Origin: Candidatus Curtissbacteria bacterium RIFCSPLOWO2_02_FULL_40_11
GTDB lineage: Bacteria > Patescibacteriota > Microgenomatia > Curtissbacterales > GWA2-41-24
Direction: 5' to 3'
Assembly (NCBI GenBank): GCA_001776505.1
Contig: MFBV01000044.1
Location: 1 to 38,941 of the forward strand
DNA length: 38,941 bases
Shown here: one piece after another, positions 34,563 through 36,331 of the stretch
Layout: each line of letters opens with the position of its first letter
Numbering within the stretch: position 1 is the stretch's first letter
Notes under the pieces: generated by a model
Seen by the model: only the letters and a program-made list of their open reading frames with translations
Database searches by the model: none
Told to the model about the DNA's origin: nothing
Translations under genes and position numbers: made by a program

Positions 34563-34691
34563 TTATTTAGCTTTAATTCTTTTTGCTGATTTTGCCCTTC
34601 GAGCTAAAGCCTCAGGACTTGCAGCTTCTATGGTTTAGACAGTCGATATTTTGGACGACAATCTAGTGAAATGGCTGTTGACGTCGTCGCT
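34563..34691 (-). pseudogene. rmuC: Displaced recoded rmuC 3'-end copy containing a REP-like insert
   Basis: SDDVNSHFTRLSSKISTV*TIE... versus active SDDVNTRFSRLSSKISTVQTIE. Confidence 0.92.
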
Positions 34692-34716
34692 TTTTTTGTG
34701 ATTCATATTTGTTATT

Positions 34717-35082
34717 TTAAACAAGCGATTCAAGACCCAAAACGATTTTGAGAGCGTCTTCGACTTCAAATAACTTGTAACTGGTAAGATTCCCTACCTT
34801 GTTTATCAATCTTCCCTTGTCTACCGAACGAATTTGGTCAACAATAATAGCCGATCGCTTGTCTAGGCCTTCATTCTCTATGTCTACAATGTTAGGACCC
34901 ATAAATTCGGGAACGATTGAGCTGAAAGGTACCATTATAAGAGTATTAGAATTTTTATTTAAAGTATTGTTAGAAATTACAAGTATAGGTCGTTTTTTGC
35001 GCATTTCACGGCCAAAACCCGGATCCAAATCCGCGATAAAAATTTCGCCGCGTTTAGGGTAACTTTTCGAATGCTTCTGCAT
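34717..35082 (-). CDS. mazF: MazF/PemK-family toxin
   Basis: RGEIFIADLDP..GREMRKKRPILVISN, DQIRSVDKGRL. Confidence 0.93.
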   Translation of the reverse strand: MQKHSKSYPKRGEIFIADLDPGFGREMRKKRPILVISNNTLNKNSNTLIMVPFSSIVPEFMGPNIVDIENEGLDKRSAIIVDQIRSVDKGRLINKVGNLTSYKLFEVEDALKIVLGLESLV

Positions 35083-35293
35083 CTACGTACTTAAAATCTT
35101 CCTGAATCTCTCTATAAATTTTACTATTTAATTTGAGGCTTTTGATTAAGTCTTTTTTAAGGTTTTTTTTGCGTTTCAATTTTTCTTCTAAAGCTGCGGC
35201 AATGAACTTACTGCGTGATCCGCCGGGAATTGTTTTCCTGAGATCTCGCGCCAAATCCGCGGGCAATGTAATATTGATCCTTTGTGTCTGCAT
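35054..35293 (-). CDS. RHH-type antitoxin
   Basis: RINITLP..L..RSKFIAAAL; homologous to the antitoxin at 15373. Confidence 0.85.
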   Translation of the reverse strand: MQTQRINITLPADLARDLRKTIPGGSRSKFIAAALEEKLKRKKNLKKDLIKSLKLNSKIYREIQEDFKYVDAEAFEKLP

Positions 35294-35302
35294 TACACAT
35301 TA

Positions 35303-35330
35303 ATTATACACACTTGATATTTTGGGTCAA
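35303..35330 (-). promoter_or_regulatory. Sigma70 promoter of the mazF module
   Basis: TTGACC-16 nt-TATAAT. Confidence 0.7.
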
Positions 35331-35335
35331 GCTGT

Positions 35336-36331
35336 TTAACCTTTTGGTTTTAAACCTTTAGTTTTGTGACTTTCTATGGTCTGCACTGTTGATATCTTCG
35401 AGCTCAGACGAGAGAAGCGGGTGTTGACATCGTCAGAGCTGGCGGCGGCGTTTTTGATGTGCTTGGTAAGAACTGAGAGACTTCCGCCGAATTTGTCGGT
35501 CTCGTCGCCGATTTCGCGAAGAGCTGCCAGAATTTGGCCGGCTTGGGCTTCGATTTTTGAGCCTTCCAAACTCATGATGATTGCACGCAAGTAAGCATAC
35601 ATGGTGCTTGGGGAAACCGGGCGCACGCGTTTGCGGTAGGCGTAATCGTCCAGTTCAGGCGCATTTGAAATCATTTCGTAATATACCGGTTCGGAAGGGA
35701 TGTACATTAGTGCAAAATCCAATGTTCCTTCTTGTGGACGGATGTATTTCGTGCTGATCGCGTCGATGTGCTTTTTTACGTCTGATATAAATGCCTTTCG
35801 GTGGATGGCTTGATCTTTTTCTTCACGCGCCTTTGTCATCTTGCGGAAATTTTCCATAGGGAATTTAGCATCTATTGGAATAATTCCTTGTTCAAGCTGA
35901 ATCGCCGCGTCTACAATTTCCCCTCCTTTAAATGCGTATTGCAAGTGAAAATGTTGTTTGGGCAAAGCTTGACCTAAAATATCTTTGAGTACAGCCTCAC
36001 CAATTTGCCCGCGCATTTTGGGTGAGCGCAGAAATTCCTGTAGATCTTTCATAGATCTGCCAAGTTCGGTCATCTCGCCTACACTCTTGGATACTCCCGA
36101 AATTACTTGAGCTGCCCTATCAAGTCTCTCATTGATAGCTTTAGTCTGTTTGACCATGGATTCTGTAGTATTGTCCATGGAACCGCGCATATCGGAAACA
36201 AGTTGAGTTAAGAGTTTAGTAGTTTCGTCACTATTTTTATTTTCTGTCAGTTTTTTTATTTGGAAATAGATGACTGCCAAAGCTGCGATTACTAAAGAGG
36301 CGACCAGAATTAAAATTGTCTGCGAATCCAT
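35336..36331 (-). CDS. rmuC: DNA recombination protein RmuC
   Basis: PKMRGQIGE, IPIDAKFP, KHIDAISTKYI, TLDFALMYIPSE. Confidence 0.95.
   Translation of the reverse strand: MDSQTILILVASLVIAALAVIYFQIKKLTENKNSDETTKLLTQLVSDMRGSMDNTTESMVKQTKAINERLDRAAQVISGVSKSVGEMTELGRSMKDLQEFLRSPKMRGQIGEAVLKDILGQALPKQHFHLQYAFKGGEIVDAAIQLEQGIIPIDAKFPMENFRKMTKAREEKDQAIHRKAFISDVKKHIDAISTKYIRPQEGTLDFALMYIPSEPVYYEMISNAPELDDYAYRKRVRPVSPSTMYAYLRAIIMSLEGSKIEAQAGQILAALREIGDETDKFGGSLSVLTKHIKNAAASSDDVNTRFSRLSSKISTVQTIESHKTKGLKPKG

Follow-up and report, generated by a model that had tools for sequence, protein, structure and literature searches.

In this work we describe a toxin-antitoxin (TA) pair inserted at the end of the core gene rmuC in Candidatus Curtissbacteria bacterium RIFCSPLOWO2_02_FULL_40_11, found on contig MFBV01000044.1 of assembly GCA_001776505.1, whose whole analysed stretch of 38,941 nucleotides is referred to here as the window. 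The predicted MazF-type pair lies on the minus strand between an intact rmuC gene and a second, decaying copy of the rmuC end, and the two ends are diverged alleles of the same coding sequence rather than fresh duplicates. The explanation that we favour, and which we regard as probable while giving weight to several objections, is a replacement-tail cassette that docked at rmuC codon 300 and has spread by recombination between relatives. In what follows G000 denotes the genome of the window, G001 and G002 its congeners (genus g1), other G numbers related genomes, L numbers loci or contigs, and C numbers contigs.

Read along the minus strand, the locus consists of rmuC, a promoter-like site, an antitoxin gene, an overlapping toxin gene, a 28-nt trailer and the second rmuC end. 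The live rmuC (35336..36331) encodes an intact protein of 331 aa which matches the Pfam family RmuC over residues 55-324 (2.3e-60) and is 76-92% identical to the rmuC of 24 relatives in the family. Its final 33 codons, running from the start of the duplication (approximately codon 300) to the stop codon (35336..35434), constitute the new tail; they translate as ASSDDVNTRFSRLSSKISTVQTIESHKTKGLKPKG followed by the stop, and their 35372-35434 portion aligns with 34626-34688. A putative cassette promoter, TTGACC-16 nt-TATAAT (35303..35330), begins 5 nt past the rmuC stop and agrees with the consensus at 11 of 12 positions; the promoter block AGTGTGTATAATTA(A/G)TGTGTAATG is kept in the cassettes of G000, G001, G002, G012, G018 (at two loci) and G024. 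The antitoxin gene (35054..35293, 79 aa) overlaps the toxin gene by 29 nt and encodes an N-terminus resembling the ribbon-helix-helix (RHH) fold, the match to Pfam RHH_5 being a weak one (E 0.003, 17.7 bits, under the 26-bit cut-off); no relative of solved structure was found for it by sequence search. Its placement and overlap are typical of type II antitoxins, and it is 98.7% identical to the antitoxin of G002. The toxin (34717..35082, 121 aa) covers the entire PemK_toxin profile (PF02452, E 4e-26, positions 1-109 of 109) and aligns over its full length with the solved MazF structures 2mf2/4mzm (phmmer, E 4e-19 (3.6e-19), residues 3-119). On these matches the pair is a predicted MazF/PemK type II TA system with its own putative promoter and a co-oriented antitoxin gene upstream. 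The trailer (34689..34716), which extends from the toxin stop codon to the old tail, is common to G000, G001 and G002, with a 1-nt length variant at 34715 in one public run.

The old, displaced rmuC tail (34563..34688, minus strand) shows signs of decay, having acquired a TAA codon at 34635-34637, three residue changes and approximately 30 extra bases. The original prediction, made from the letters of the window, had reported such a copy of the rmuC end downstream of the toxin, and the alignment bears this out: 18 of 22 residues are the same from S299 on, with a Gln replaced by the TAA. Translation of 34540-34790 on the minus strand gives KKSDDVNSHFTRLSSKISTV, a stop, TIEAASPEALARRAKSAKRIKAK and a further stop, so that the old tail reads SDDVNSHFTRLSSKISTV, stop, TIEA... 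where the live rmuC reads SDDVNTRFSRLSSKISTVQTIES... A scan of G000 returned 34605-34700 as the sole second rmuC-like stretch (E 6.9e-5). The rmuC gene remains whole because a differently spelled copy of its last 33 codons precedes the insert. An assembly artefact was considered as the source of this arrangement and rejected, since L168, an independent contig from a metagenome, and a contig of 2.4 kb from run X1 show the same layouts.

Key to the interpretation of the locus is the manner in which the two tails differ. New and old tail are identical at 45 of 63 nucleotides (71%), and by codon the 18 differences leave 8 codons the same, 9 synonymous, 3 non-synonymous and 1 changed to a stop; when the same number of substitutions was placed at random, none of 2000 simulations was as conservative in amino acids as the rmuC pair. 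The pattern extends to the tail pairs found elsewhere in the genome (see below), where a synonymous excess was significant at P <= 0.008 in 12 of 14 pairs, with totals of 120 identical, 114 synonymous, 39 non-synonymous and 3 stop codons. Since the differences are mostly synonymous, the tails are diverged alleles and not a fresh target duplication, and the comparison shows the two to be, as far as their codons tell, alleles from different lineages that diverged as coding sequence. The old tails found at the same place in G001, G002 and G012 still have an open reading frame, and between those of G001 and G002 there are 17 differences in 78 nucleotides, yet over the first 23 codons both encode the same residues, which indicates that each was a working rmuC end until recently. 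A diversity-generating retroelement was examined as a source of the differences and set aside, as the 18 mismatches are of all types and no reverse transcriptase is encoded among the neighbouring open reading frames (ORFs).

As to which tail is native, the old tails of the three congeners are mutually 0.69-0.78 identical and are 0.63-0.76 identical to the tail of G023, the closest cassette-free relative, while the live tails are 0.56-0.68 identical to that of G023. Within the limits of such short sequences this supports an old tail that is native and a new tail that was imported, and agrees with the proposal in the original prediction of a TA insertion by tail replacement: the insertion has a live replacement tail on one side and the displaced old tail on the other, and the old tails are more like one another and like the cassette-free tail than like the live tails.

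Comparisons with the congeners reveal a marked disparity between the cassette and its surroundings. G000 and G002 have an identity of 71-83% in eight syntenic blocks elsewhere in the window, as against 632 of 646 identical positions from spacer to trailer; the corresponding values are 83/109 upstream of the duplication, 74/99 in the new tail and 45/63 in the old tail (Fisher P 2e-14 and 2e-12). Likewise, the metagenome contig L166 carries an rmuC approximately 80% identical to that of G000, followed by a cassette which from 35332 on is 92-100% identical per 60-nt interval (mostly 97-100%). Over three species-level lineages the cargo has an identity of 97-100%, compared with 71-83% for rmuC, for both tails and for the remainder of the window. 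These alignments show that the cargo has recently passed between species which in their flanking genes reach no more than 71-83% identity. A second form of exchange was observed between G001 and G002, which share 87 of 109 positions upstream of the duplication start, as opposed to 96 of 99 between that point and the rmuC stop (P 1.6e-4), and which remain 93-94% identical through the promoter and the 5' half of the antitoxin gene. Here the sharp break in identity at the duplication start (0.80 to 0.97) shows that the replacement tail has moved along with the front of the cassette. Such joint travel of tail and cargo is not seen for G000 and G002, which share the cargo alone.

A further break lies within the cassette itself. 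In G001 the 3' half of the antitoxin gene and the body of the toxin gene represent a different allele, 58-59% identical to G000 and G002, while its promoter, antitoxin 5' half, toxin 3' end and trailer are held in common with both. The G001-type interior was confirmed on one contiguous metagenome contig (L168), and this mosaic shows that the interior, comprising the C-terminal half of the antitoxin and the toxin body, has been swapped as a separate module. By this reckoning there are at least three exchange modules, whose joints fall on conserved blocks and lie at the duplication start, at the rmuC stop codon and promoter, in the middle of the antitoxin gene, and at the toxin 3' end and trailer. 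The assembly of G001 is itself broken inside the antitoxin gene, its contigs C115 and C44 (L003/L034) overlapping by 55 identical nucleotides, which is what the coexistence of both alleles in the population would produce; L166 and L168 show two cassette alleles to be in circulation in close relatives, suggestive of a polymorphism within the population. In a search of species-representative genomes for relatives of the toxin, the best 80 of 204 candidate stretches encoding a relative included one close relative, at 98% and from a congener, the rest being at most 45% identical and uninformative on context. The contigs of four public runs over 33500-36400 agree with the layout described and contained no cassette-skipping joint, circle junction or empty allele, with the proviso that contigs hide rare variants.

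The original prediction had also noted by eye that the 3' half of rmuC looks richer in G+C than its surroundings, and had taken this as a hint of a longer foreign tract. The elevation is real, with a GC content of 0.52 at 35400-35700 relative to approximately 0.38 around it. GC content at third codon positions (GC3) reaches 0.55-0.70 at codons 220-320 of the G000 gene; when GC3 was followed in windows along 25 rmuC genes, however, cassette-free relatives proved alike (L008 0.68, L011 0.57-0.65), and a longer foreign tract is therefore not supported. In addition, the gene is evenly similar to that of the closest congener throughout, with an identity of 0.68-0.85 per 50-codon window and no break, and the block recently shared with G002 and L166 starts no earlier than the rmuC stop codon. 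The rmuC gene is thus free of a compositional or phylogenetic break on the scale of a long tract, while the tail itself does present one.

The end of rmuC was found to be a recurrent site of insertion within the family. The gene order across the family is a Big-domain gene, a membrane gene, rmuC, a variable stretch and a helicase gene, and in six relatives having a single tail (L013, L014, L015, L021, L024 and L027) the helicase gene starts no more than about 140 nt past rmuC. A second rmuC tail was identified in 6 of 32 genomes of the family and in none of 29 genomes of other families; all begin at codons 291-299 (299 in genus g1, 291 in G012), and they enclose different cargos. MazF cassettes occupy the site in G000, G001, G002 and G012, G026 has a block of 1.7 kb that encodes an ECF-type sigma factor, and in G016 the tails are separated by 46 nt with a YafQ-type pair beyond the old tail. 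A remnant tail of 13 codons at the rmuC of G018, starting at approximately codon 321, was spotted by eye.

Tail replacement is not confined to rmuC. Within the window, genes for an RHH antitoxin (15373-15651) and a PIN toxin (15015-15380) come after lepA (15705-17567, minus strand), and an old lepA tail (14939-15016) lies directly past the PIN stop codon; it is identical to the live tail at 57 of 79 positions and, apart from one 1-nt deletion, encodes the same residues. As the original prediction proposed, the rmuC insertion is independent of this one, since toxin family, host gene and junction all differ. Second lepA tails were found in 7 of 41 relatives searched, G000 included, with starts at query residues 83, 118, 124 and 129. 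The helicase gene (30447-33503) provides an example of an 'empty' replacement, in which a 38-nt spacer holding CCCTGAGCTTGTCGAAGG (30420-30437) and an old tail identical at 34 of 41 positions occupy 30368-30446. In a scan of the genome that compared the last 40 residues of each ORF of at least 90 aa with the 3 kb downstream, with follow-up alignments, tail pairs were recovered at at least 12 further genes of G000. Their cargos comprise a MazE-type/PIN pair, a HicB/HicA pair, DUF433, DUF5674, PadR with DsrE, and a Y1-transposase-like gene, and at the K+-transporter-like, PPase-like, L7/L12-like, EF-G-like and 181-aa genes a spacer of 37-79 nt alone. Toxin genes are enriched in this setting: a duplicated coding segment (score >=60) flanks 7 of 18 toxin genes (10 PIN, 2 PemK, 3 ParE and 3 HicA) versus 5 of 60 random places (P 0.0045). 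The same MazF cassette family, together with its promoter block, recurs in G018:C3 (L120, 546-2978), where a WecG-type glycosyltransferase gene is followed by an RHH/MazF pair, a convergent Phd/PIN pair and a 66-codon old WecG tail, such that two TA pairs lie within one tail pair.

A number of arrangements could in principle produce such a locus. Direct homology-facilitated illegitimate recombination (HFIR) would create each copy separately, from incoming DNA of a relative in which the cassette already lay behind rmuC, with rmuC as the anchor and the far end joined within the recipient's tail, the displaced tail being nothing more than a scar with no later function. The process, as described (PMC3240628, PMC6382021), resembles the present case in trapping foreign DNA beside a homologous anchor without an element-encoded enzyme; it is plausible given the ComEC domain encoded by G000, and it accords with duplication starts that vary by genus (rmuC 291, 299 and ~321; lepA 83, 118, 124 and 129) and with junctions of 14 genes that have no motif in common. 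We nevertheless consider it unlikely. The trailer/old-tail junction is identical in three species whose old tails have diverged as coding sequence, which argues that the junction itself was transferred and not remade by repeated illegitimate joins, and the tract shared by G001 and G002 begins at the duplication start rather than upstream, where an anchor would lie; HFIR alone explains neither feature. A long target duplication in the lineage of G000, whereby the cassette duplicated approximately 100 nt of its own rmuC and the copies then drifted, seems very improbable. Its precedent is the insertion of restriction-modification genes described by Furuta, Abe & Kobayashi 2010 (PMC2853133), likewise addiction-type pairs lacking integrase, transposase or other mobility genes, mostly in competent species, with direct repeats of tens to hundreds of bp which are single-copy in empty genomes and sometimes overlap the 3' end of a gene. 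The rmuC repeat is similar in being 63-99 nt long (>30 bp), with a single tail in six relatives and no mobility gene, and a few near-identical pairs do exist in G000 (34/36 on C9, 25/27 at a 367-aa host on C32, and 40/40 in a tandem array on C22). However, the repeats in the published cases are 93-100% identical and the recipient's own (PMC2853133), whereas those described here are 71-83% identical with mostly synonymous differences, which marks one copy as a foreign allele. A dead copy cannot gather mainly synonymous differences, and the cargo is 98% identical to that of G002 compared with 71% between G000's own tails, so that the tails must be far older than the cargo's last move.

Two enzyme-driven schemes were also weighed. 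A recombinase supplied in trans (integron-like, Xer-like or hairpin-recognising) could insert circular cassettes using the replacement tail as an attachment site, and would account for the sharp edges of the unit at the duplication start and the toxin stop codon; four tyrosine recombinase genes (PF00589) are present in the genome, on contigs C14, C9, C42 and C29, and the tiny spacers of the 'empty' tail replacements at rpsT, the L7/L12-like and the PPase-like genes bear hairpins. We find this scheme hard to support, and quite unlikely, in that no tyrosine recombinase gene stands beside the diverged-tail loci (serine recombinases were not searched) and the one on C9 goes with near-identical repeats, while the 14 junctions have no common core, the junction position differs between genera and neither edge of the MazF cassette has a hairpin. 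The contigs of the four runs likewise contain no circle or deletion joint, which is a weak point since contigs hide rare forms. Nuclease-driven homing, in which an endonuclease encoded elsewhere would cut an empty rmuC at codon 300 and repair would copy the resistant tail together with the cargo, strikes us as scarcely credible, even though its geometry equals that of the WHO elements at yeast FBA1 (Coughlan et al. 2020, PMC7282813). As described there, the host gene is full-length but has had its 3' end replaced by a diverged one, behind which lie the cargo and then the old 3' fragment that was displaced. The replacement end moves along with the cargo, a sharp break in identity marks where the fragment begins, and a role as homology arm is proposed for the downstream fragment; the two TA pairs between the tails of the G018 WecG locus are also reminiscent of WHO arrays, which arise from repeated events. 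In contrast to the WHO cargo, a DNA endonuclease that cuts the empty allele and homes in diploid meiosis (PMC7282813), the cargo here is an RNase-type toxin and its antitoxin only, carried by a haploid ultra-small bacterium in a system that involves many host genes. Cargo types moreover vary by locus (MazF, PIN, HicA, DUF433, PadR/DsrE, a sigma factor, or nothing), and none of the cargos was seen to include a nuclease gene. The mobile ORFs of mitochondria in fungi have the same layout; with the defining endonuclease missing, the locus is not classed with them or with WHO elements.

In the replacement-tail cassette that we favour, the mobile cargo would consist of the promoter, RHH antitoxin, MazF toxin and 28-nt trailer. 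A foreign allele of the last 33 codons would precede this cargo and complete rmuC, while the lineage's own former tail would follow it, dead. Spread would occur through recombination between relatives, probably following DNA uptake, with the rmuC body or new tail serving as homology arm on one side and the displaced tail on the other, and with crossovers limited to a few conserved blocks, such as GACGACGTCAAC where the duplication begins, the promoter and the 3' end of the toxin gene. Its geometry would be the one put forward for the yeast WHO elements, though the cargo contains neither a DNA nuclease nor an integrase. The TA pair would be a passenger rather than the cause of insertion, and would make loss costly, while diverged tails, unlike identical repeats, would not recombine the insert out; taken together, these two properties would explain both the persistence of the cassette and the enrichment of TA cargo. 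The first insertion at any new gene would need one illegitimate step. In line with this scheme G000 encodes a ComEC-type Competence domain (158 bits), from which DNA uptake is predicted, and natural competence has been reported for Saccharibacteria (PMC10187176). In Bacillus subtilis, transformation is described with DNA up to approximately 23% divergent, and HFIR beyond 15% divergence (PMC6382021), and transformation can yield duplications via alternative sister-chromatid pairing (PMC3784515).

Several points weigh against this explanation. Neither a donor nor a strain-level empty allele was seen, and the direction of replacement, with the new tail foreign and the old one native, consequently rests on topology and short sequences. 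The new tail of G000 is not close to any sampled tail (best 0.74). At lepA neither direction is favoured, since the identity of congener G002 is 0.70 with the new tail versus 0.67 with the old one, and a comparison of 57-nt lepA tails with 20 relatives gave no signal. A break at the duplication start would also be expected from a double-strand cut, a circular cassette or a site-specific recombinase, and recombination is inefficient between sequences that are approximately 25% divergent. In 8 cargo cases the old tail lies 0-30 nt past the last cargo gene, a tidiness that simple illegitimate joining does not predict. Related cassettes also occur behind a DUF3105 gene (L167, L169 and L170), and no old tail is detectable at L167 and L170, the two that could be checked, so a tail is not obligatory in every copy. 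Finally, every genome compared is a metagenome bin, and the tails are short.

Beyond rmuC, the recurrence of tail pairs raises the possibility, which we put forward tentatively and would not rate as probable, that gene ends are standard docking sites of a cassette system free of nuclease and integrase, or else that a new kind of activity at gene ends, of the host or of an element, drives both the cassettes and the tiny hairpin inserts. Under such a system a cassette would be packaged with a recoded version of the last 15-65 codons of its host gene, the displaced tail would become the landing arm for the next exchange, and TA pairs would be the most successful passengers, since their loss is punished.

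Searches of the literature on TA insertions with target duplication or duplicated gene ends, and on TA mobility in Patescibacteria, did not turn up a description of this layout (subscription papers and supplements were not covered). The nearest case is the Microcystis orthocaspase gene reported by Klemencic et al. 2021 (PMC7935541), which is similar in having a TA module directly behind the host gene, fenced by direct repeats; as presented in that report, however, those repeats (152 bp) are identical and intergenic, lying 14 bp past the stop codon, and replace no gene tail. With regard to the pair itself, the toxin family, the small antitoxin encoded upstream with an overlapping gene and the pair's own promoter are as in MazEF/PemIK systems (solved MazF 2mf2 and 4mzm; EndoA 4mdx), while the antitoxin differs in being weakly RHH-like, without a solved relative by sequence. 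Some integrative elements are known to rebuild the 3' end of the gene into which they insert, among them the islands at tRNA genes and e14 and phage 21 at icd. Like the cassette described here, they bring a substitute gene end and leave the old end downstream; unlike it, they carry an integrase and a defined core site, neither of which was found at this locus.

The interval between the old tail and the helicase gene contains a variable-region ORF of 290 aa (33652..34524, minus strand), which has no Pfam family and of which the C-terminus alone matches an ORF at the same place in G002; a search for a second old tail behind it found none. A promoter-like site (34533-34562) is present just past the old tail. 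That the old tail has been kept as the promoter of this ORF was considered and rejected, because the site lies past the tail and not within it. From the start of the helicase gene to the end of the 290-aa ORF, a 198-nt block with a long hairpin (33478-33675) is 91% identical to G002, relative to 71-83% around it. In G002 the interval between rmuC and the helicase gene carries a Y1 (IS200-like) transposase-family gene as cargo (C13, L033, 2126-2776).

Within the approximately 30 extra bases of the old rmuC tail, which are absent from the old tail of G001, lies a miniature motif, CCCTTCGA..CTCAGG (34595..34616, plus strand); this is the repeat that the original prediction had placed in the extreme tail. 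A strict form of the motif (CCCTGAGC-N-TCGAAGG) occurs in 12 copies in the genome versus 0.2 expected from shuffles, and a longer form is found in the 5' leader of the G018 WecG-locus cassette. Sites in the window are at 21264-21290, 30420-30437, 32971-32989 and 34595-34616, with 9 more in G000, and their settings include the spacers of empty tail replacements, an in-frame position within the helicase gene and the old rmuC tail. The motif looks like a miniature insertion element. The spacers behind the rpsT, L7/L12-like and PPase-like genes (21099-21160 of the window, and contigs C26 and C6 of G000) have two hairpins in common and end like CTCCRTTCTCTA.

Other duplicated segments in G000 take different forms. 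On C35 (L155, 324-1019) a Y1 (IS200-like) transposase-family gene lies between the tails of a 507-aa gene. On C14 (33929-35746) two convergent PIN genes lie within a duplicated coding segment of 30 residues (score 112) which resembles the start, not the end, of a membrane-protein gene and may represent a head replacement. On C22 a tandem tail array lies approximately 120 nt behind a 442-aa ORF (6726-8054); in it an identical 40-nt tail reappears past a spacer, a synonymously recoded copy of the tail and another spacer. On C9 (8215-9980; L158, L163) a 134-aa ORF is followed by a cargo of two genes, whose 36-nt repeats are identical at 34 positions and which adjoins a tyrosine recombinase gene; unlike the diverged-tail loci, this is probably a classical integrase element.

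Together these observations point to a route by which accessory genes would enter, and circulate between species in, genomes of about one megabase in which intergenic space is scant and classical mobile elements are few: an insert enters the terminal stretch of a core gene and carries a spare copy of that stretch along. Such a route would give TA pairs a concrete form of chromosomal mobility, would account for short 'ghost' gene ends that are otherwise annotated as pseudogenes or taken for assembly errors, and would constitute a bacterial, nuclease-free counterpart of the layout of yeast WHO elements and fungal mobile ORFs. It also predicts how, by a simple design rule, genes could be placed in Patescibacteria through natural transformation, in which a recoded tail is followed by the cargo and an arm of native tail. 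Should gene ends indeed serve as docking sites, whether for a cassette system free of nuclease and integrase or for another gene-end activity, either version would represent a general and undescribed route of gene gain in Patescibacteria.

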